A DNA stretch of 45,809 bases from a phage: assembly GCA_024854585.1 (NCBI GenBank), contig GCA_024854585.1_4323.1. The stretch is one strand, 5' to 3'. Every line of letters starts with the position of its first letter. Position 1 is the first letter of the stretch. This document shows positions 9,880 through 42,122 of the stretch, one piece after another. A program made the position numbers and the translations under genes. The notes beneath the pieces are model-generated. The model had not been told where the DNA came from. It worked only from the letters and a program-made list of their open reading frames with translations, and searched no databases.

Positions 9880-9900
9880 TTTAGCAATTCGTGCTATTTA
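9880..9900 (-). promoter_or_regulatory. Palindromic promoter/operator motif copy
   Basis: tttagcaattcgtgctattta; overlaps stop of 9894..10418. Confidence 0.6.
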
Positions 9901-10418
9901 CCATTCAGGATTGATTTAGCTTTCCGGTACAACTCAATCGCCTCCTCAACCTCTTCCTCACTGTACCGTAAGTGGTATGGTAGTCTACTAGCGTGCTCAC
10001 CTTCGTAAGTTTTGAAGTTTGGTTGCCAACACTCATCAATGATAGCCGGATGAACATAAATCTTATCTCCAATGAGGCAAGCTAGATTCATACTCTCTAG
10101 GGCTGGGATAAGCTCATCCTTAATGCTCGCCATGATATCAACGCAGCCCACGAACGGCTTAACCTTACGTGCAGCTTCGTGTACAGACTTGACACCCACC
10201 ACTCCCTTGACGTTCCTTGTCATCTTCCTAATCAACTTAATCAGAACCCCCAGCGCTTCATCTCTGTATACTTCCGATGCATCAGGCTGCCCCCAGAGGT
10301 GCTGAACATGCCTATACCCGTTAGCATTGATTGCAACCCGCAGTGGCGGCAGCCCATCCTGGATTGCAATATTCATAATCTGCTCGTCCGTCAGTTTCTC
10401 TTCGTTGAAATCAAACAT
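9894..10418 (-). CDS. Hypothetical protein; internally deleted paralog of 13243..14826 (shares its N- and C-terminal segments)
   Basis: MFDFNEEKLTDEQIMNIA...LPPLRVAINANGYR and ...GVVGVKSVHEAARKVKPF...CLIGDKIYV match N- and C-termini of the 527-aa protein. Confidence 0.6.
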   Translation of the reverse strand: MFDFNEEKLTDEQIMNIAIQDGLPPLRVAINANGYRHVQHLWGQPDASEVYRDEALGVLIKLIRKMTRNVKGVVGVKSVHEAARKVKPFVGCVDIMASIKDELIPALESMNLACLIGDKIYVHPAIIDECWQPNFKTYEGEHASRLPYHLRYSEEEVEEAIELYRKAKSILNGK

Positions 10419-12323: not shown

Positions 12324-12677
12324 ATGACTACTACGATTACTAAAAACTGGATCAGCAACGAAAACGTACTATACAAAGCTCGCGTTAAAGATGGTGTAGA
12401 ACAAATCAAGAAAGATGGGAAATGGGTTAACCTGGAAGAGCGCGGTAAGTACATCAAGACAAAGACCATTTACTGCACAAAGGTTAATCATCGAAGTGGT
12501 GTTAAGAAGAATTTCAATGTTGACTCAAGGTATCAAGTTAATATTCATTCGGGTCTTGGTCAGTGGGCGGGATATATCTATGACGAGGATGGTAGCGCGT
12601 GGCAACTTTACCGAAATGAAGAGGTTGGTTTCTTTACACTTTGCGGAACATATCTATTTGAGGCAAAATATTCATGA
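12324..12677 (+). CDS. Hypothetical protein; paralog of 16377..16577 (shared TIYCTK...Y core)
   Basis: 117 aa; KTIYCTKVNHRSG...GYIY resembles KIIYCTKNNSKT...GYYKIY. Confidence 0.5.
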   Translation: MTTTITKNWISNENVLYKARVKDGVEQIKKDGKWVNLEERGKYIKTKTIYCTKVNHRSGVKKNFNVDSRYQVNIHSGLGQWAGYIYDEDGSAWQLYRNEEVGFFTLCGTYLFEAKYS

Positions 12678-13171
12678 ACTTCAATGAGCTTTTTAGCTAT
12701 AAAGATGGTTTTCTTTATTGGAAATCGCTAGCACCATCAAAGAGCGGAAGGAAAAGCAGGATAAAGATTGGGGACAAGACCTCTGAGTTACTGACAAAAA
12801 GTGGTTATGATAGAGTCGTTGTAAACAATAAATTCTATTACAAGCATAGAGTTATATGGGAAATGCACAACGGACCAATACCAGATGGGATGCAAATTGA
12901 CCATATCAATCATGCTAGAAACGACAATAGAATTGAGAATTTAAGATTGGTAAGTAACTCTTCAAACTCAAAGAATCGAAGAATTCTAAAAAGAAACACA
13001 AGTGGATTCAATGGCGTTTACTTTTCAAACACGTTTAAAAGATGGATTGCAGAGGCAATGTTTGATGGAGTAAATTACAACTTAGGAAAATACAAAACGA
13101 AGGAAGAAGCCATAAAAGCAAGAAAGCAAGCAAACACTAAACTTGGTTTCCATGAAAATCACGGCAAATAA
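12674..13171 (+). CDS. HNH homing endonuclease with AP2-like DNA-binding domain
   Basis: HRVIWEM...DHINHARNDNRIENLRLVSNSSNSKN (HNH) then NGVYFSNTFKRWIAEAMF...YNLGKYKTKEEAIKARKQA (AP2-like). Confidence 0.8.
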   Translation: MNFNELFSYKDGFLYWKSLAPSKSGRKSRIKIGDKTSELLTKSGYDRVVVNNKFYYKHRVIWEMHNGPIPDGMQIDHINHARNDNRIENLRLVSNSSNSKNRRILKRNTSGFNGVYFSNTFKRWIAEAMFDGVNYNLGKYKTKEEAIKARKQANTKLGFHENHGK

Positions 13172-13242
13172 GCACTAAAAGCTAAAGAATATCTGAGCGG
13201 GTGTTATATAATGCCCGCATATTAACGAGATGGAGTATTAAG

Positions 13243-14826
13243 ATGTTTGATTTCAACGAAGATAAACTATCTGTTGAACAGGTTATGGCAATTGCTGCCG
13301 CAGACAACCTCCCGCCACTGCGAGTCGCCATTAATGCCAATGGCTATCGCCAATCTCAATCATTCTGGAAAGCGCCAGTCGAGATTGATGCAGCTAATGA
13401 CAAATACCCCGTAATATCTCTCGGCAATGATATTGATGTTGTTGGTAAACTGTCAGCCAACATTGCTCGTTCAGTTCAGTTCCCCGAGTCTTCAGCTTAC
13501 ATGCACTTCCTGGGGTGTATTTCTGCCGCTATGCTAGGACGCTTTACTGTTGAGTATCACGGAACTCATCAGCCTACGTCTCTGTACGTAGTAACAAGCC
13601 AGCCTCCATCGACTGGTAAATCAGCTATTAACTCGCTATCTATTGCTCCAATGATTGCTGAGACTGAGCGGCTGAATGAAGTTCGAAAGCGTGAGCGTAA
13701 AAAGATTATGGCAAAACTATCTGCATTATCAAAAGAGATGAAGCAGGAAAAGTCACCATCAGAGATGGCTTCTCTTTTCGAGGAGAAAGAGGAGTTGGAG
13801 GAAAAACTCGAGAAACTATGCGATATCGTTTTCCCGGTTTCAGATACCACACCGGAAGGTCTTGCGCGAATAAACAATCGTCAGGGTAACTTTGCAGTAA
13901 TCTCGGATGAGGCAACGAGTGTAAACTCACTACTTGGCATGACCTATGGTGACGGATCAAAGAAAACGAACAGCGAACTGGTACTGAAGGCATGGGATGC
14001 TGGCAACGTATCTATCGCTCGTGCTAACGCTGAAAACAACATGAGCTTCGTCGCTATGGGTTGCATCTCTGTAATTGCGCAGGATGAGACAATCAACGCT
14101 ATCATGAACGCTGGCGCGCGTGGTATCGGTGTATCTGAGCGTTTCCTGCTTGTACGTGAAAAGTCATTCCTGGGCGAGCGTGTATTCGTTGATGAAAATG
14201 GCGAATCGACTTATGAACCAATTGATGGCGGGTTGAAGGCTGATTACTTCCGTTTAGTTCACGAGATAATGAATGAGCAAGAAGTTAAGTTGACAGTTAG
14301 TAATTCAGCAATGAAATATCTCAACCGCGCTCGTCAGGAAATGGAACCGCACCTTGCTGACGGCGGGAAGTATTCACACACAATGTTGCGAGGTGCGCTT
14401 GGTAAGTTCGATAAACAGGCAATAAGGATTGCGGCGGTACTTCATACTGTGCGCAACTGGTTCAACCCTAACGGCGGGAGTCCACATAAGTCTAGGGAGA
14501 TTGAACTTGATACTATGCAAGAGGCTGTAATCATGTTCCAGGAACTTAGCAAGACTTATCTGTCATCTGCAAACGCGGCTGGTCACGCTGGCGACAATGC
14601 CGAGATGAATAAGCTGATTGATATCCTGATCAAGCAAGGCAAAAGCGGGAAGGGCGTAGTTGGTATTCGTTCATTGTATGAAGCGGCTCGCAAGGTTAAG
14701 CCTTTCGAGGCTCAGGCGGGAGTAATGACGAAGATTAAAGATCACCTGCTGCCAATGCTTGATGAGAAAAACTATACTTGCCTGATTGGTGATAAAGTTT
14801 ACATTAATCCACGATTGCTGGGGTGA
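13243..14826 (+). CDS. Large hypothetical protein with P-loop-like motif (VVTSQPPSTGKSAI); possible NTPase of unknown role (track ORF starts 13201)
   Basis: 527 aa from ATG with GGAG RBS; GKS motif; termini shared with 9894..10418. Confidence 0.55.
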   Translation: MFDFNEDKLSVEQVMAIAAADNLPPLRVAINANGYRQSQSFWKAPVEIDAANDKYPVISLGNDIDVVGKLSANIARSVQFPESSAYMHFLGCISAAMLGRFTVEYHGTHQPTSLYVVTSQPPSTGKSAINSLSIAPMIAETERLNEVRKRERKKIMAKLSALSKEMKQEKSPSEMASLFEEKEELEEKLEKLCDIVFPVSDTTPEGLARINNRQGNFAVISDEATSVNSLLGMTYGDGSKKTNSELVLKAWDAGNVSIARANAENNMSFVAMGCISVIAQDETINAIMNAGARGIGVSERFLLVREKSFLGERVFVDENGESTYEPIDGGLKADYFRLVHEIMNEQEVKLTVSNSAMKYLNRARQEMEPHLADGGKYSHTMLRGALGKFDKQAIRIAAVLHTVRNWFNPNGGSPHKSREIELDTMQEAVIMFQELSKTYLSSANAAGHAGDNAEMNKLIDILIKQGKSGKGVVGIRSLYEAARKVKPFEAQAGVMTKIKDHLLPMLDEKNYTCLIGDKVYINPRLLG

Positions 14827-16376: not shown

Positions 16377-16577
16377 CTAGTCAGCGACAATAAATTCAAC
16401 TAACGAACCATCAATCGGCGCTAAGATTTGCGTCATATCGTCGCCATAAATCTTGTAGTATCCATCGCCCTGGTACTCTGCGCTGTACGGCTGGTTAACT
16501 GTAAATGGAAGCGTCTTGGAGTTGTTCTTGGTGCAATAAATAATTTTAGTCATCTTGTGTTTCCTCGTTTGGTTCAT
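16377..16577 (-). CDS. Small hypothetical protein, paralog of 12324..12677 core (likely start at internal MTKIIYCTK)
   Basis: Shared IYCTK.N...GYYKIY motif. Confidence 0.5.
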   Translation of the reverse strand: MNQTRKHKMTKIIYCTKNNSKTLPFTVNQPYSAEYQGDGYYKIYGDDMTQILAPIDGSLVEFIVAD

Positions 16578-16606: not shown

Positions 16607-17143
16607 TTATACGGCATTGGTTAGGCAAAAATTGCTATTTCTAGCTTCTTCCGTGATTTTCGTGAAACCCCATAGACTTCTCAACCTCAAGCCTGAGCTT
16701 GACAGCTGTTTCATACAATCCCCATGATAAATGTATTTTACTTTCTGCTTTCCACATTTTTCAATCCTATAGCTAACACTAGCTATCCACTTCCCCTTAT
16801 TGTTCATATACACACCATGAACACCGGATTTGTTTTTAGAATTCAACTTCATATTTTTGTGATTATCTCTATTATTAACCACTCTGAGGTTTTCAATTCT
16901 GTCATCACCTGGAACTCCATTGATGTGATCAACCTGCATCCCATTAGGTATCTCTCCATTAAACATCTCCCAGACAACCCTATTCCTTGCGTGCTTTTTG
17001 TTGTTTATTGTTATATAACAATACCCATCAAACCTAACGCTACCAGCCTTATCTCCAGGGTAGTATTTTGTGACACCTCTACCACCTTCAATCGCCCAAT
17101 AAAGAAATCCGTCTTCATAATTAAAATAATAATGCCAATTCAT
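16607..17143 (-). CDS. HNH homing endonuclease with AP2-like domain
   Basis: HARNRVVWEM...DHINGVPGDDRIENLRVVNNRDNHKN then GVHGVYMNNKGKWIASV; 3-prime end runs through a degenerate motif copy. Confidence 0.75.
   Translation of the reverse strand: MNWHYYFNYEDGFLYWAIEGGRGVTKYYPGDKAGSVRFDGYCYITINNKKHARNRVVWEMFNGEIPNGMQVDHINGVPGDDRIENLRVVNNRDNHKNMKLNSKNKSGVHGVYMNNKGKWIASVSYRIEKCGKQKVKYIYHGDCMKQLSSSGLRLRSLWGFTKITEEARNSNFCLTNAV
16621..16640 (-). promoter_or_regulatory. Degenerate motif copy inside 3-prime end of HNH gene
   Basis: ttaggcaaaaattgctattt; followed by hairpin gccgcatttatacggc and CATAAT-like hexamer. Confidence 0.35.
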
Positions 17144-17196
17144 CTCTTTCTCCTCTCGTTTCTATAAAACAATAATAGCCGCTTTCGCGGCTACTG

Positions 17197-17216
17197 TTTT
17201 AACAAAAAGTGCTATT
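17197..17216 (-). promoter_or_regulatory. Variant motif copy (ttttaacaaaaagtgctatt)
   Basis: Upstream of HNH gene; spacer contains hairpin gccgctttcgcggc and TATTAT hexamer. Confidence 0.45.
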
Positions 17217-18345
17217 AGCTAAACATTTCGGGACGGCAAGTGAATCGACCAATCTCTCCGAATTTAGGGCTGTAGATGATTACCGACGCCTGGCGATAAG
17301 AGCGATAACCACCGTTGGCACTGTACGCATCCTTACAACCAAGCTGACCATGAGACTCATCAATACCTAAGTTACCCTCTGTAATCGTTTGATGGTGGTA
17401 ATGGCCCGAGTGAGTGTAAACATACTCAGACTCACCAAAAGCCTTACGATGGTCACGAGCAAGTGTTGATAGTCTGGTATCAGGCTTTTTCAGTTCGTGC
17501 CCATGACAGTAACCAAGCAGGGTCTTTCCAAACTGTGTTACGTGAAGCGCCGCAGGAGATGCATCAACATTAACTCGAGGCTCATCCATATAGAACGCCG
17601 CCATTGCAGCGCGAAGCCAAATCATACCTGAGAGGTCGTGGTTGCCAGGGATAATCTGCACCTCAACCTCGGCGTGCTTATCAAGCATCCGACTAATTGC
17701 TCGGCGGGTAGCTCGCACCGCTACGTAAACAAGCTTGTGATAACGGCTATCTTGATCAAGAATATGACGACTCGTTGGAGTTACCGCTTCCATTCCGTCA
17801 GAGTGAAGGAAGTCTCCACCAATCAGCAATACAGCTTTCTTTGAGTTAGGGGCTTTTGCTACCGCGTAATCAAAGTAATCATTAAGGATTCTCTCAGCAA
17901 TTTCAGTACTGTAGTTCTCACCACATTCAGCGTGGTGAGCCATAGCGCCAATGTGAAGGTCGAACACGGGGTAAAGGCTCAATGTGTCCTCAAATAATGA
18001 TACTCTGAGCGCCTTAGGTTTCTCACGTGGCAAATCATCAGTTAGTGCCTGAATTACTTGAAGCATCATCTCTTCCTGCTTCTCTTTATCAATGTCAGAC
18101 TTAACCCACTGCTGCTTAATCTCACCATCCGCACCAATAAGGCTAGAAACACCCTTAACTGCGTAACCCTGCGGAATCAGATTGCTAACGTCACGGCCAT
18201 GCCCTTCACCCTGCTTCGCTAATTTACTACGACGCAATTCAACATTGCGAATGTTCATTCCGTACTTCTCTGCGATTGCCTTATTGGTCATGCCATTTGC
18301 CAGTTCTTCGCGCAGTTCTTCGTTGGTAATTTTTGCAGTTGCCAT
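17215..18345 (-). CDS. Helix-turn-helix plus calcineurin-like metallophosphoesterase domain protein
   Basis: N-terminal MTNKAIAEKYGMNIRNVELRR (HTH-like); GGDFLHSDG and PGNHD motifs typical of metallophosphatases / SbcD-Mre11-like nucleases. Confidence 0.55.
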   Translation of the reverse strand: MATAKITNEELREELANGMTNKAIAEKYGMNIRNVELRRSKLAKQGEGHGRDVSNLIPQGYAVKGVSSLIGADGEIKQQWVKSDIDKEKQEEMMLQVIQALTDDLPREKPKALRVSLFEDTLSLYPVFDLHIGAMAHHAECGENYSTEIAERILNDYFDYAVAKAPNSKKAVLLIGGDFLHSDGMEAVTPTSRHILDQDSRYHKLVYVAVRATRRAISRMLDKHAEVEVQIIPGNHDLSGMIWLRAAMAAFYMDEPRVNVDASPAALHVTQFGKTLLGYCHGHELKKPDTRLSTLARDHRKAFGESEYVYTHSGHYHHQTITEGNLGIDESHGQLGCKDAYSANGGYRSYRQASVIIYSPKFGEIGRFTCRPEMFS

Positions 18346-18427
18346 TTATAAGTTCCTTAATTCATTACGATAAAGTATAAGATAGTAAAGCTAAACAGTG
18401 GGACTAATGCTACTAGTATCAGGCTCT

Positions 18428-23866: not shown

Positions 23867-23888
23867 CTTAGCAATTCGTGCTATTTTA
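23867..23888 (-). promoter_or_regulatory. Motif copy in minus-gene orientation with no minus-strand gene to drive (module-boundary remnant?)
   Basis: cttagcaattcgtgctatttta sits 20 nt upstream of tailspike ATG. Confidence 0.4.
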
Positions 23889-23907
23889 CAAATGGAGACT
23901 TTACGCA

Positions 23908-26505
23908 ATGGCAATTTATGACTTAGGAACAGCGTCGCTAGCCGCAAATGGCGAGGTGACTGGGGTCGGAACAACATGGAAAGCACCGCTTACACTGATT
24001 CGTGTAGGTGCAACCATTATTTTTAAAACAAGCCCCCTGAAGATTTACACCATCTCAGAAATCATCAGCGATACGCAGATTAATGTTTATAACCCTAATT
24101 CTGAAACTGTTCCTGCAGGAACTGGTTATGCGATCCTTGCTCACGATGGGATTACCGTTCAGGGTTTAGCTCAGAATGTAGCAGAGACTTTGCGTTACTA
24201 CCAGTCTAAGGAGACATCCATCGAAGGATTGCTGCAATTTATTAGTCAAGACACTTTCGACTGGCCTAGATTCGAGCAACTTGCAAATCAATCCACCACT
24301 GGAGCTGCGGAGGCGCTTGCTAGTCAGGTTGCTGCCGCAGAAAGCGCATCAACTGCCGTTGGTGCTAGCAATAATGCACAGAACTCATACAACAGAACCG
24401 TTGCCGCAATAAATGCAGCCGGGAATACCGCCGCAGTGGCTTACTTTGCAGAACACGGTATAGGAAGCACAACAACTCCACTTTTAACATCTCTTGACTG
24501 GCAGACAATGCAATTTTATTCAGGTGGTAGTTACCAGTGCAGAATTGACAAAATGGTTAACATCCCAGCAGACTTAAGCCTAATGTTCCCGGCGACAAAC
24601 ACTACTATTTGTATTGATGTTCTTGCGACGCGCGGTATTAATGGAAGTAACGTAGTAAGAATTTCTCCCTCTACAACCTCAAACGCAGTTTTTAGGGTTG
24701 CGGAAATTACCTTTACTGGAGCTGCTGGTTCTAGGAATTTTTATGTAAGGGAGTTATTGAGTGTGCCTGGTGGAGATGCATCAAGCGGTGGGTCCAGCGC
24801 ATTAAGGGTTAGAGGTTTGCTTGATGTTTACTCGAAGGGCGAAACCTTTCTGAGGTCTTCCAACCTTAGCGACATCCCAAATAAAGAGGCTGCGAGAATT
24901 AATCTTGACGTTTACTCAAAAGCCGATCTTGGAGGAGTGTCTTCACTATCAAAAATAGGTTCGGCAAACTATAGCGACATAAGGGGTTATTCGGGTTCTG
25001 ATTATTCCATTAGTTGTTACGGAAGAGAGACGATCGCAGATAATGCTTTCGGTATATTCCAGAGAGATGATTCAGACACATCTAGCGAGGACAATGATGG
25101 TACCATTCTTGTTGACGCATTGGATAGAAGATGGAAGAGAAGCTACACGGGTCCAGTTGATGCTAGATGGTTTGGAGTGAAAGCTGACGGTGTAAGTGAT
25201 GACACTGCGGCGGCAAACAGAGCTACATCAACGCTTCAGGATGTTTCTTTTCCTCCAGGTGTAATTTTAACTAGCGGGCCAATACTTTTCGGAACTCAAA
25301 ACATAAGAGGGGCATCAACCTACCCAAATTCAAAATACGGAACAATTATACAATGCTCTGGTGATCATTCTGGATTCGAGCACTTCCCTACCGGATATCA
25401 ACCAGGTGGGTCAATAGCTAACTTTTGGATTAACTATCAGTCTAGTAAGCCAACGACAGACAGTGGTTTTAGTCGTGGCATTGATTTTGGAACCAGAGAT
25501 TCTTTAATTGACCCTCTTGCAGGTGGAGTTACAAACTTTAAGGTTGAGAATGTAATAGTAAGAGGTGCCTACTATGGATTCTACGATGTGACGTCAGCTT
25601 ATTTGATGGAGTATGTTAATTGCTGGGCGTGGGATTGCATTCAGGGCTTTAGGAAAGACTACGGGACAACCGTTAAGTACTCATCGTGCTACTCACTTGA
25701 TTGCTATGCGTCATGGGCGCTAAAGTACTGTCACGTAGCTACTTTGGTGAACTGCGCGTACGATGGCAGCTCTAATTTTGGAAACTTAACGCCGTTTATT
25801 GCAACTCAGTGCCCTGGGTTGACGATAACTGGAATGCAGCATGAATCATCAAAGGTTAATATTAATGGCGGATCAGACTTTGTTCTTATTGACTGCAATT
25901 CAGCAAAGATTTCAGGGTTTTCGATACCGTCATGGAGAAACCAAAACCCGCAAGGACAGGAGGCTTATCTTTTTAGATTCACAAACTCAGACGTTGATAT
26001 TTCAGGAGTCAACTTATCTGGTTTTGTTTCTGGTGGAAGTTCTGATGTTATTAGTGATGGAGCAAACTCTTATGTAGTGCTTGCAAATTCAGGGTCAAAT
26101 GTAAGGGTTAGCGCAAGCAACCTGCCTGTAGTCTCTGGATCGCAGTACTCTTACTCGCTCTCTGCATCCGCTGATAGCAGAATAGATTACACAAGTAACT
26201 GTGATGTTGGCGGGCTTGTTAATGGATCTGTTTTCATTAATGGATTCTCACAGCCTTCATATATTGACTACAATGTTACACTTGCAGCTAATGGTGGAAT
26301 GTCATTTCTAGGAACAGTTAGCGTCCCTGGCGTTAAGTATGGTGATTTCATAAACGTGGATGTTAGTTCCGGTCTTAGTGGTATTGATATATTTGCATCC
26401 AGGGCTGGTGGTGGGACTGGTAGTGTTAACGTATTCTTAGTTAATCACAATACATCTCAAGTTAGCGTGTCTGGTCGGGCTGTAATTAGATTCATGAGGC
26501 CATAA
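23908..26505 (+). CDS. Tailspike / receptor-binding protein with probable right-handed beta-helix (pectate-lyase-like) depolymerase domain; track ORF starts 23878
   Basis: WFGVKADGVSDDTAAANRA matches the FGAxGDGxxDDTxAxxxA signature of pectate-lyase-fold tailspikes; Ser/Gly/Asn-rich repeats. Confidence 0.55.
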   Translation: MAIYDLGTASLAANGEVTGVGTTWKAPLTLIRVGATIIFKTSPLKIYTISEIISDTQINVYNPNSETVPAGTGYAILAHDGITVQGLAQNVAETLRYYQSKETSIEGLLQFISQDTFDWPRFEQLANQSTTGAAEALASQVAAAESASTAVGASNNAQNSYNRTVAAINAAGNTAAVAYFAEHGIGSTTTPLLTSLDWQTMQFYSGGSYQCRIDKMVNIPADLSLMFPATNTTICIDVLATRGINGSNVVRISPSTTSNAVFRVAEITFTGAAGSRNFYVRELLSVPGGDASSGGSSALRVRGLLDVYSKGETFLRSSNLSDIPNKEAARINLDVYSKADLGGVSSLSKIGSANYSDIRGYSGSDYSISCYGRETIADNAFGIFQRDDSDTSSEDNDGTILVDALDRRWKRSYTGPVDARWFGVKADGVSDDTAAANRATSTLQDVSFPPGVILTSGPILFGTQNIRGASTYPNSKYGTIIQCSGDHSGFEHFPTGYQPGGSIANFWINYQSSKPTTDSGFSRGIDFGTRDSLIDPLAGGVTNFKVENVIVRGAYYGFYDVTSAYLMEYVNCWAWDCIQGFRKDYGTTVKYSSCYSLDCYASWALKYCHVATLVNCAYDGSSNFGNLTPFIATQCPGLTITGMQHESSKVNINGGSDFVLIDCNSAKISGFSIPSWRNQNPQGQEAYLFRFTNSDVDISGVNLSGFVSGGSSDVISDGANSYVVLANSGSNVRVSASNLPVVSGSQYSYSLSASADSRIDYTSNCDVGGLVNGSVFINGFSQPSYIDYNVTLAANGGMSFLGTVSVPGVKYGDFINVDVSSGLSGIDIFASRAGGGTGSVNVFLVNHNTSQVSVSGRAVIRFMRP

Positions 26506-29980: not shown

Positions 29981-30652
29981 ATGAAAAACATAAGAGAGAC
30001 TAAAATGAACATTGAAGCGTACAAAGAACAGCCAAAAACCATGATGAGCACGAAGGAAATTGCTGAATTGACAGGTAAGCGTCATGATCACGTCGTTCGC
30101 GACACAAAGGAAATGATCAATGAATTGTTACATTATAACTATGCCCCAGATTTGGGTCATGATGATTATCAAGTACTTACGGACAATCGCGGCTATACAT
30201 CTGAGGTTTTACTCAACAAGGAACTCACCGAAACGCTAATCACTGGCTACAGTGTCGTACTTCGCCACAAAGTAATCCGCAGGCTTCATGAGCTTGAGGT
30301 GTTAGTTAAAAAACAAGCAGAAGTGATCAGCCAGATGGTAAGCATTGATGAGTTAAAAGAGGCGCGCATGATGCTTGGTGTGGCTAATGCTCAGAATGCA
30401 CACCTGAGCCAGCGCATTGTTGCAGAGCAAAGAATAAATGAGATTTTACTCATGGATAAGAATACCGATGAAAAACTCGACATGTTGGCTTGTGAGGCTC
30501 GCCAGTGTTGGGTTAGTCGTTCTGATGAGATGGAGGAAAGATTTAAGTATGAATCGCAATGCTTCGCGCTTAAAGAAAAGACGGATGCACTTACCGGATT
30601 AATTGAGAATGAGCTAGGTATTGACATTAAGCTGTTGCTCGAAAAGAAATAG
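29981..30652 (+). CDS. Rha-like phage regulatory protein (possible true start at 30005)
   Basis: N-terminal STKEIAELTGKRHDHVVRD pattern typical of Rha-family regulators; coiled-coil C-terminus. Confidence 0.45.
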   Translation: MKNIRETKMNIEAYKEQPKTMMSTKEIAELTGKRHDHVVRDTKEMINELLHYNYAPDLGHDDYQVLTDNRGYTSEVLLNKELTETLITGYSVVLRHKVIRRLHELEVLVKKQAEVISQMVSIDELKEARMMLGVANAQNAHLSQRIVAEQRINEILLMDKNTDEKLDMLACEARQCWVSRSDEMEERFKYESQCFALKEKTDALTGLIENELGIDIKLLLEKK

Positions 30653-30733: not shown

Positions 30734-30979
30734 ATGACTAACTTAATCAAATCAGCAATCATCGCAGCAGCAGTAATCATGGCAGTTGGTTGCTCTTCAG
30801 GTCCTCGTCCGGATGGTTGGTGTGCAACTCAAGCAAATGGTGTGTGCGTAGCTAAATGGAAGGGTGGTGTAGTTGTTCCGGCTGGCGAGGTTGATATTCG
30901 CTACGCTGGCATTGAAAGCAAAGCTGGCGGCGGTTACGGAGGTTCTGTTGCAGATCATGGCAGCAAGGAGTGGAAATAA
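30734..30979 (+). CDS. Small lipoprotein, possibly Cor-like superinfection-exclusion protein (track ORF starts 30659)
   Basis: [22 protein letters not shown]: signal peptide with lipobox; about 81 aa; placed next to tail fibre genes. Confidence 0.45.
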
Positions 30980-31941
30980 TGCCGCAGGGTATATTGATTG
31001 ACCTCAATGACGGAAGACCAGCGATGGAAATAACGGCAGGATTAAGGGCGCCTGCTGTGACTGGTTCAATAAATACCAATGGACTTTCAACCCCAGCAAG
31101 TTCGTGGGATTTTGGATTAACAATGTCTCCTGGCTCTACGGCTTTCTGCCTGCCAACGAAGGCAGTCCACGTTGATGCTTACGATGTTATACCTGAAGTT
31201 TATTACATGAACGGATTCCAAAAGGTTAATGACGGAGTTGGCAGGATAACACTCAGTAACTTCAATGGTGCCAATGGTCGAATAATTGACTTTGCGGGTA
31301 ATTGTTTTGAAATTCTACCAGCATCATCTTCATCAAGCCCAGGGATACTCGTTGAGAACTCAACTGATTTCCTTGCTATATCAAGCAACTCGAGACTAAT
31401 GTCAGCAGCATGGGTTGGAGGCATACAGGTTAACGGGGCGGCATCGCTACCAGTTAGCGGAATACCATTCGGCAAGTGGGATAATCCAAACGTATCACTT
31501 GAATCAGATGGATCAACAATATGGTGTAGGGATATAACCTACGGAGGTACAGATGATGTTGCGGCAAGTACTTATGTTCAGCTGGTGATATTCAGAAATG
31601 AACCACCACCAGCCGGACCAGGACTAACAATGTCGAATAGTTCTGGTCAGATTGTTTTTTCAAGTGTTCGCCGCCCATTTGTTCTTGGTGGATTCATTCA
31701 GATCAATAATGGATACCAGTCAATAAATGGTGGATTCTTTCCGCTGCTTAGATGCGGCGCTACGACTAGAGTTACTGGAGGTTATAACAACTTAAGGTAC
31801 AAAGGGGTCTGCATGTCTGGAGGCTCTGTTAGGGCTGTTCCTGGCTCTGTAATTGGTAACTACTCGACGCAATCAGGCGCTCAGTTTCCTTTCGACACGA
31901 ACATATCAATGGCACTTCCATTTATCCCAAACTTCTACTAA
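30979..31941 (+). CDS. Putative tail fibre / receptor-binding accessory protein
   Basis: 320 aa, Gly/Ser/Asn-rich, beta-rich composition; located between lipoprotein and J-like gene; start coupled to upstream stop. Confidence 0.35.
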   Translation: MPQGILIDLNDGRPAMEITAGLRAPAVTGSINTNGLSTPASSWDFGLTMSPGSTAFCLPTKAVHVDAYDVIPEVYYMNGFQKVNDGVGRITLSNFNGANGRIIDFAGNCFEILPASSSSSPGILVENSTDFLAISSNSRLMSAAWVGGIQVNGAASLPVSGIPFGKWDNPNVSLESDGSTIWCRDITYGGTDDVAASTYVQLVIFRNEPPPAGPGLTMSNSSGQIVFSSVRRPFVLGGFIQINNGYQSINGGFFPLLRCGATTRVTGGYNNLRYKGVCMSGGSVRAVPGSVIGNYSTQSGAQFPFDTNISMALPFIPNFY

Positions 31942-41753: not shown

Positions 41754-42122
41754 TTAGTTTTTTACTCGCTGACCAGCAAGCGACTGCATATAAGAGGTAG
41801 TAAGCGCAACTGTAGATGCTGGGAATAAATCAGCAAACTCGATGACGTTTTCTTCATTAAATTCTTCTTCCAGATCCCAATCAGAGGCGATTGCCATGAT
41901 CAATTCTTTAGTACTTAAGTCTTCTTTCTGTAGTAACTCCTGAAGCTCTGAGGTCTTCTTGTGCTTTACTGTAAAGATAACCTCTACATCCTGGTCGTTA
42001 GCCAGCTTGAATTTTACAGGCAGCTTAAAGTCAGGAAGTGCTGCCAGTGAAAGTTTGAACTTTGCCATCTTAGTTAATCCTCTTATTGTTTGTGAGATTG
42101 CATTATAGCAGGTTGGTAGCAA
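41754..42122 (-). CDS. Tail assembly chaperone (lambda G-like)
   Basis: 122 aa between major tail and tape measure; ends ...GQRVKN with slippery heptamer. Confidence 0.65.
   Translation of the reverse strand: MLPTCYNAISQTIRGLTKMAKFKLSLAALPDFKLPVKFKLANDQDVEVIFTVKHKKTSELQELLQKEDLSTKELIMAIASDWDLEEEFNEENVIEFADLFPASTVALTTSYMQSLAGQRVKN
41757..41763 (-). other. Candidate -1 programmed ribosomal frameshift slippery heptamer A_AAA_AAC
   Basis: Minus strand reads GTA AAA AAC TAA; X_XXY_YYZ pattern just before the G stop. Confidence 0.55.

Follow-up and report, generated by a model that had tools for sequence, protein, structure and literature searches.

There are two precedents for phage metallophosphoesterases that act as DNases without a partner protein. 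A1 of phage T5 is a predicted metallophosphatase that has structural features in common with polymerase proofreading subunits and with nucleases of double-strand-break repair; it is required for the degradation of the host chromosome and suffices for it (bioRxiv 10.64898/2026.04.02.716235). An independent study modeled it with a DNA-binding domain at the N-terminus and a nuclease at the C-terminus, and four of five retron-Ec67 escape mutations fall into the DNA-binding domain (bioRxiv 10.1101/2022.08.27.505566). Gp48 of the cluster A mycobacteriophage A10ZJ24 is a stand-alone metallophosphoesterase with demonstrated phosphodiesterase and DNase activity, which degrades DNA, including that of the host, in vitro and in vivo and depends on its conserved motifs to do so (PMC12287305). 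The 45,809-nucleotide stretch of phage DNA analyzed here (NCBI GenBank assembly GCA_024854585.1, contig GCA_024854585.1_4323.1; hereafter the window) contains a gene whose product of 376 amino acids (aa) joins an N-terminal helix-turn-helix (HTH) to a C-terminal calcineurin-like phosphoesterase domain. The product is, with moderate confidence, predicted to be a metal-dependent DNA nuclease that acts on its own and belongs to the Mre11/SbcD/PolD-DP1 branch of the calcineurin-like phosphoesterases, because its catalytic residues are intact and near-invariant, the HTH is present across the family, and the gene is located in a replication and recombination context; the precedents of A1 and Gp48 point in the same direction. 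The gene and the elements of its product are the following (pLDDT, predicted local distance difference test).

17215..18345, minus strand: coding sequence of the HTH-phosphoesterase, 376 aa plus stop codon, with an ATG start (from the list of open reading frames)
18205..18333, minus strand: N-terminal helix-turn-helix, residues 5-47 (helices 8-16, 21-28, and 32-47; AlphaFold block pLDDT 81-95)
18166..18204, minus strand: flexible linker, residues 48-60 (lowest model confidence, block pLDDT 66-70)
18037..18165, minus strand: beta-hairpin, residues 61-85, and helix, residues 87-103 (from the secondary structure of the model and from alignments)
17218..17991, minus strand: calcineurin-like metallophosphoesterase domain, residues 119-376
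17953..17961, minus strand: motif I, D129-L-H131 (DxH, metal ligands; D129 in 269/270 and H131 in 270/270 sequences; codons verified)
17797..17817, minus strand: motif II, G177-D178-F-L-H181-S-D183 (GDxxH; D178 in 270/270, H181 in 268, and D183 in 258; codons verified)
17635..17646, minus strand: motif III, G234-N235-H236-D237 (GNHD; N235 and H236 each in 268/270)
17497..17505, minus strand: motif IV, H281-G282-H283 (H281 in 269/270)
17392..17406, minus strand: motifs V/VI, G314-H315-Y-H317-H318 (GHxH; H315 in 261/270 and H317 in 267/270)

The two-metal active site is complete and under strong purifying selection, because its catalytic residues are near-invariant across the homologs. In an alignment of 62 homologs with 30-70% identity, D129, H131, D178, N235, H236, H281, and H317 are invariant and H315 is nearly so. 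The same seven residues each occur in at least 267 of the 270 family sequences, and all eight, including H315, in at least 261 each; 140 of 147 motif-spanning representatives (≤50% identity) retain the complete set. The metal-binding motifs of the calcineurin-like superfamily (DxH, GD, GNH[DE], H, and GHxH) are all present, as is its beta-alpha-beta-alpha-beta sandwich fold. In the family of the window protein, motif I follows the pattern DxH[LI]G, motif II reads GDxxH and resembles the GDLFH of Mre11, and motif III reads GNHD. This set of motifs is that of Mre11 and SbcD, unlike that of PPP phosphatases. The Pfam model of the superfamily (PF00149) scores 20.4 bits with the 376-aa protein, against a gathering cut-off of 21.5, and reaches E < 0.01 in 15 of the 62 homologs.

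The type of the N-terminal HTH is LuxR/GerE or sigma-70 region 4. On the 376-aa sequence alone, the Pfam match is weak (GerE, E = 0.043), but matches are significant among the 62 homologs (Sigma70_r4_2, 1.5e-9; GerE, 2.4e-8), with HTH_8 and HTH_1 each matched by 10-14 of them. In profile alignments, the segment aligns with the HTH domains of GerE, RhlR, and FixJ, all with non-significant E-values; its residues are variable, and no position is invariant. The hairpin and the helix that follows it form a family-specific element covered by no Pfam model, with the hairpin consensus VKGxSxLY..DG....QWVK, in which G74 is present in 258 and W80 in 264 of the 270 sequences. The fusion of HTH and phosphoesterase is ancestral and standard for the family, because even the homologs from Vibrio and Dinoroseobacter phages with 28-33% identity have an HTH-like N-terminus, together with the conserved hairpin, and in 144 of 149 representatives motif I is preceded by 100 residues or more. 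A preliminary description of this DNA had delimited the open reading frame (ORF) at 17215-18345, which proved accurate (minus strand, ATG start), and had recognized an HTH-like segment, which is borne out by the Pfam matches of the homologs and by three helices in the structural model. The GDxxH...GNHD motifs it had reported are also in place (GGDFLH, 176-181; GNHD, 234-237), accompanied by the other metallophosphoesterase motifs, and none of the active-site residues is missing from the alignment. Its view that the fusion is unusual does not hold, as this is the regular layout of a large catalogued phage family (PHROG 704).

The ORF is a real gene, as the E-values of its homologs in sequence searches (down to 4e-244) are far beyond chance. 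By sequence similarity, its product is an ortholog of ST16 of phage T1 (62% identity over 377 aa, full length) and of gp14 of Shigella phage Sf12 (90%); a protein of Veterinaerplatzvirus T145P1 is 98% identical. Residues 4-375, HTH included, match positions 2-389 of the 390 in the profile of PHROG 704, "DNA repair exonuclease" (E = 1.2e-147). RefSeq annotates ST16 with the same words, and the family is alternatively annotated as 'calcineurin-like phosphoesterase'; the name "DNA repair exonuclease" is a homology-based label. Nothing material sets the window protein apart from PHROG 704 and T1 ST16, and it counts as an ordinary representative of the family. Both the gene and the annotation are already public, near-identical proteins are present in GenBank, and the family is known; as the find of a genome scan, the gene is ordinary, and its supposedly unusual fusion is the family norm. 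The literature found on this gene in T1-like phages consists of genome descriptions only and includes neither biochemical nor genetic work on a family member. A paper on Lamassu that names both T1 and 'phosphoesterase' is irrelevant to the gene.

Carriers of the family include Drexlerviridae, Guernseyvirinae, Dhillonvirus, Webervirus, Vibrio phages, and roseophages. A tblastn search located the protein in 2,049 phage records, which comprise phages of Escherichia, Klebsiella, Salmonella, Vibrio, Campylobacter, Flavobacterium, Rhodobacter, and Ruegeria, and among them Drexlerviridae, Jerseyvirus, Escherichia siphophages such as SSL-2009a, and N4-like roseophages. When 1.84 billion cluster representatives (clusters at 50% identity) were searched exhaustively with HMMER, 4,706 clusters matched with E < 1e-3 and 997 with E < 1e-30. 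The exonuclease gene persists in 508 of 522 Drexlerviridae (PMC13164509), which makes it a persistent core gene of this family that is also present in thousands of other phages and prophages. Matches to plasmids were set aside, as these records, 44-50 kb in size and non-mobilizable, are apparently phage genomes deposited under the label of plasmids. A 46.7-kb contig (NZ_VSMK01000220.1) in an assembly of the sulfate reducer Nitratidesulfovibrio liaohensis encodes a protein 95% identical to that of the coliphage and is probably a T1-like coliphage contaminant of the assembly. A Paraclostridium 'plasmid' of 49.6 kb (CP124687.1; 61% identity) has a similar appearance.

An AlphaFold2 model built on the 62-sequence alignment has a mean pLDDT of 92.6 and a predicted template modeling score of 0.79 and is soft only at the linker (residues 48-60). 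In structural comparison, its closest match is the proofreading exonuclease PolD DP1 (15.6), followed by Staphylococcus aureus SbcD and Thermotoga maritima Mre11 (14.6 each), MJ0936 (13.9), LpxH (13.4), YfcE (12.8), and Rv0805 (12.2); other Mre11/SbcD entries range from 12.3 to 13.2, and the PPP phosphatase PP5 from 8.7 to 8.8. The predicted fold leans toward the DNA-nuclease branch, with a small margin over generic phosphodiesterases. Structure prediction had been proposed as a check in the preliminary description; the model returned both HTH and phosphoesterase fold with confidence, and its nearest neighbors include PolD DP1, SbcD, and Mre11. Outside its own family, the viral structures in BFVD matched by the model include a cloud of phage metallophosphoesterases, several of them labeled "DNA polymerase II small subunit". 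A sequence search of the PDB gave nothing with the single protein, and the family profile yielded non-significant matches (E at least 0.29). Matches to NCBIfam were insignificant (PdeM, E = 0.0012, 18 bits against a cut-off of 150), and the 376-aa protein matched no SbcD- or Mre11-specific profile in Pfam or NCBIfam.

The window represents a T1-like siphophage of the family Drexlerviridae, and the DNA of the region is ~91% identical to that of vB_EcoS phages from the host E. coli DSM 12242. The gene has a fixed place at the end of the replication and recombination module, which also comprises the preceding genes for a helicase, a VRR-NUC nuclease, a primase, a single-stranded DNA-binding protein (SSB), Erf, and a RecE-like exonuclease. 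Read along the coding strand, the helicase and VRR-NUC genes are followed by five small ORFs, the HTH-phosphoesterase gene, the terminator, and the genes for an HNH endonuclease, a DUF7244/SH3 protein, a holin, a signal-anchor-release (SAR) endolysin, and a spanin; from nuclease to spanin, the order is identical in T1 and the window. None of the window ORFs scanned against family profiles encodes an SbcC/Rad50 (SMC)-like ATPase, and the larger, unscanned ORFs are those of the structural gene block. Likewise, a DNA polymerase was found neither among the scanned ORFs nor in the gene list of T1, the annotated reference for the gene arrangement. The coding sequence is flanked by two signals, and T1 has an annotated terminator (41980-42007) in the equivalent place after ST16.

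18353..18358, minus strand: Shine-Dalgarno-like AAGGAA, 8 nucleotides 5' of the ATG (read off the sequence)
17174..17195, minus strand: terminator-like GC-rich hairpin with a T-rich tail, directly 3' of the stop codon (from a consensus scan)

The neighborhoods in Jerseyvirus, one Vibrio phage, and one N4-like roseophage do not conserve the T1 arrangement. Of the 80 loci obtained by scanning a single genome for each bacterial species, many are part of complete chromosomes or large chromosomal contigs from Alpha-, Beta-, and Gammaproteobacteria. In prophage loci, the gene is located between a Q-like antiterminator or Holliday-junction resolvase gene and the genes for TerS, TerL, and portal protein; in one, it adjoins an integrase gene. 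Because of these chromosomal loci with terminase neighbors and the integrase, the gene belongs also to temperate lambdoid-type prophages, where it occupies a nin-like position. Clustering of the six neighbors on either side at 66 bacterial or prophage loci revealed no conserved partner gene. The commonest associates within six genes are a deoxynucleoside monophosphate (dNMP) kinase (10/66 loci) and lysozyme-type proteins; a T5-Dmp-like dNMP phosphatase is present in 3/66. In loci from Agrobacterium (L020), an alphaproteobacterial metagenome-assembled genome (L044), and Devosia (L080), a dNMP kinase and a T5-Dmp-like deoxynucleoside-5'-monophosphate phosphatase are encoded 2-4 genes downstream of the HTH-phosphoesterase, a pairing that recalls A1 plus Dmp in the pre-early region of T5. 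Among Drexlerviridae without the SH3 gene, those for polynucleotide kinase (PNK) and dNMP kinase are the commonest directly after the exonuclease gene (KanT1 paper; PMC13164509).

In this reading, the gene is expressed together with the phage replication and recombination (nin-like) genes. The HTH, probably with the hairpin, would supply the grip on DNA that Rad50 and the capping domain provide by clamping in Mre11/SbcD, and the phosphoesterase domain would then hydrolyze DNA phosphodiester bonds in the infected cell. Two roles carry about equal weight. The enzyme may break down host chromosomal DNA to feed phage replication, as do T5 A1 and Gp48; this role is favored by these precedents, by the occasional linkage to genes for dNMP kinase, Dmp, and PNK, and by the degradation of host DNA that is classical for T1. 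Alternatively, it may process ends or branched structures in recombination-dependent replication and before packaging, which is favored by the fold neighbors, the nin-like position beside resolvases, and the presence in prophages. A more far-reaching proposal, which is doubtful as a whole, holds that the HTH-phosphoesterase of PHROG 704 is the host-chromosome-destroying nuclease of T1-like phages and many other siphophages and represents the classical host-DNA-degradation function of T1 whose loss gives high-frequency transduction. Together with T5 A1, it would then form a widespread, previously unrecognized class of Rad50-free takeover DNases tethered by a DNA-binding domain, which would be kept under tight control in temperate prophages.

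Several observations weigh against a DNA nuclease or against one of its roles. The sequence links to solved nucleases are non-significant (E at least 0.29), the protein lacks a capping domain, the scanned window ORFs include no Rad50/SbcC, and no assay of any family member was found in the literature. A recombination role could be redundant, because a RecE-like exonuclease and a VRR-NUC nuclease are among the other products of the phage. The location of the gene in integrated prophages argues against wholesale destruction of host DNA as a universal role of the family. Moreover, the linkage to dNMP kinase concerns a minority of loci, many of which are related Rhizobiales elements.

Among the alternatives, a phosphodiesterase for signaling nucleotides (cyclic mono-, di-, or oligonucleotides; the messengers of CBASS, Pycsar, Thoeris, or type III CRISPR) that serves as an anti-defense enzyme is the least improbable, albeit very unlikely. 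The known messenger-degrading enzymes of phages have other folds, with Acb1 being a 2H phosphoesterase and Apyc1 a metallo-beta-lactamase, and the calcineurin-like fold of the window protein is unlike either. PADLOC returned zero matches, no anti-defense family was matched, and the gene is a persistent core gene in a fixed position between replication and lysis genes rather than part of a variable accessory island (PMC13164509). Furthermore, the nearest fold neighbors of the model are DNA nucleases, not cyclic nucleotide phosphodiesterases, and a conserved DNA-binding HTH would be of no obvious use to a small-molecule hydrolase. Metallophosphoesterases can also be 3'-phosphatases or cyclic phosphodiesterases, and next in rank, with a very low probability of its own, is an end-healing phosphoesterase that acts on the 3'-phosphates or 2',3'-cyclic phosphates of DNA or RNA ends together with a PNK, like the calcineurin-like domain of bacterial Pnkp. 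T1 encodes a short PNK (ST64, 176 aa), and a PNK gene is one of the two commonest directly downstream in the Drexlerviridae without SH3 gene (PMC13164509), but none adjoins the phosphoesterase gene in the window or in T1. An RNA ligase was not identified, and the fold neighbors of the model are Mre11, SbcD, and DP1 instead of the lambda-phosphatase-like Pnkp domain.

It is very unlikely that the protein is chiefly a regulator of transcription, in which the HTH would recognize phage promoters in front of the late genes (lysis and packaging) and the phosphoesterase would be a sensory or accessory module. The sigma-70 region 4/LuxR type of the HTH and the gene order, in which the lysis cassette of T1-like phages or the terminase genes of prophages follow directly downstream, would agree with such a function; yet it is the catalytic residues that are strongly selected, whereas those of the HTH vary without any invariant position, a terminator separates the gene from those downstream, and the prophage loci already have a Q-like antiterminator. 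The least probable of all is a Ser/Thr/Tyr protein phosphatase that acts on host or phage proteins as a positional analog of lambda NinI. It would share the superfamily, and the slot between replication and lysis or terminase genes resembles that of ninI, which occupies a similar place in the nin region of lambda. Membership among the PPP protein phosphatases of the NinI type was rejected, as the protein does not match their GDxHG, GDxVDRG, and GNHE motifs. The preliminary description had offered an SbcD/Mre11-like nuclease, a protein phosphatase, and an enzyme against CBASS-type messengers as possible functions; the nuclease is the most likely of these, and the other two found no support. It had itself named housekeeping replication nucleases as closest homologs that would speak against its proposal, and judged by this condition, the exotic readings lose weight.

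Several further features are present in the window.

16607-17143, minus strand: HNH homing endonuclease (PHROG 99)
12674-13171, plus strand: paralogous HNH homing endonuclease (also PHROG 99)
16377-16577, minus strand: stand-alone SH3-like DUF7244 protein of 66 aa (Pfam, E = 1.8e-28), between the HNH gene and the holin gene
13201-14826, plus strand: protein of 541 aa, PHROG 2373 'DNA helicase', which also matches PHROG 7327
9894-10418, minus strand: separate ORF of 174 aa that matches PHROG 7327

An HNH gene is located immediately downstream of the phosphoesterase gene in the window, in T1 (ST15), in Sf12 (gp13), and in a Vibrio phage. In Escherichia phage mEp010, the match to the protein covers two coding sequences annotated as 'hypothetical protein', a terminator, and a homing endonuclease, which suggests that the phosphoesterase gene has been split there by an HNH insertion. 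As a conserved gene, it may be a homing target. The DUF7244/SH3 gene is the lysis-module-associated SH3 gene recently described in Drexlerviridae (PMC13164509). The 174-aa ORF is similar to the C-terminal ~90 residues of the 541-aa helicase protein, which suggests a duplicated or detached domain of the latter. A tail-fiber gene is located within the replication module, where the primase and SSB genes flank it, as is the case in T1. The tail-tip gene is adjoined by a homolog of Ant-like anti-repressors (PHROG 8235), in a phage that is presumably virulent, and by the gene for a 323-aa membrane protein of the moron class (PHROG 1265). The coordinates of the tail-fiber, anti-repressor, and moron genes are 23878-26505, 29981-30652, and 30970-31941, respectively, all on the plus strand.

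If the protein is indeed a nuclease that degrades host DNA or processes ends, a knockout would bear on transduction, since phages that spare host DNA package host DNA, and on the safety of therapeutic T1-like and Webervirus phages. It would also bear on the question of how phages manage without Rad50-type partners.

Comparison with described nucleases delimits the family on several sides. Mre11 and SbcD, with 13-18% identity to the window protein, have a Rad50/SbcC partner, whereas none is encoded among the scanned window ORFs or conserved at the 66 loci; they also carry a capping domain C-terminal to the nuclease, whereas the window protein, according to its model, ends with the phosphoesterase domain. 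The N-terminal HTH and the hairpin, both features of the window family, are absent from Mre11 and SbcD. An assignment to Mre11/SbcD proper was rejected in view of the missing partner, the missing capping domain, and the lack of family-specific profile matches. PolD DP1, the 3'-5' proofreading exonuclease of Archaea that works with the catalytic subunit DP2, is 13% identical and has an OB-fold in front of its phosphodiesterase domain, in place of which the model shows only a two-stranded hairpin and a helix. Membership in PolD DP1 was likewise rejected, as there is neither an OB-fold nor, among the scanned window ORFs and in T1, a DP2 polymerase subunit. In Gp48, the first catalytic Asp is residue 10, which leaves no room for an N-terminal HTH, unlike in the window protein; it represents a separate subfamily, because mycobacteriophages are outside the ten most frequent organism names of the tblastn matches.

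With T5 A1, the window protein shares, at the level of architecture only, a common logic, in which a DNA-binding domain at the N-terminus is combined with a metallophosphoesterase of the Mre11/DP1 type at the C-terminus and a Rad50-like partner is lacking. Several listed homologs of A1 (~530 aa, 45-49% identity; P0342, P0344, P0345, P0346, P0348, P0372, and P0384) contain N-terminal HTH domains in Pfam (HTH_23, HTH_38, HTH_7, and CENP-B_N), which supports the published prediction of a DNA-binding N-terminus in A1. Judged by their domains, the relatives of A1 constitute a second, independent family in which a DNA-binding domain precedes a metallophosphoesterase. Both families have the local motif (G/S)NHDxxxSxWL in common, and about 11 phage metallophosphoesterases in BFVD are matched by the models of both. 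By contrast, A1 has 556 aa with a large extra middle domain, compared with 376 aa in the window protein, and is encoded by a pre-early gene tied to two-step DNA injection. Alignment of A1 with PHROG 704 by hhalign, using full proteins or the phosphoesterase domains alone, gave probabilities of 35-57% restricted to motif III or the HTH, and reciprocal hmmsearch scores did not exceed 17.8 bits. Among the top 50 BFVD hits listed, an A1-family model (pLDDT 87.7) retrieved no members of PHROG 704, and the window model did not retrieve A1. A1 was rejected as a member of PHROG 704, since hhalign, hmmsearch, and BFVD are all unsupportive, and because these statistical tests of a specific relationship fail, it is kept as an analog only. 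T5 A1 is best regarded as an architectural and probably functional analog of the HTH-phosphoesterase and, at most, its distant cousin.

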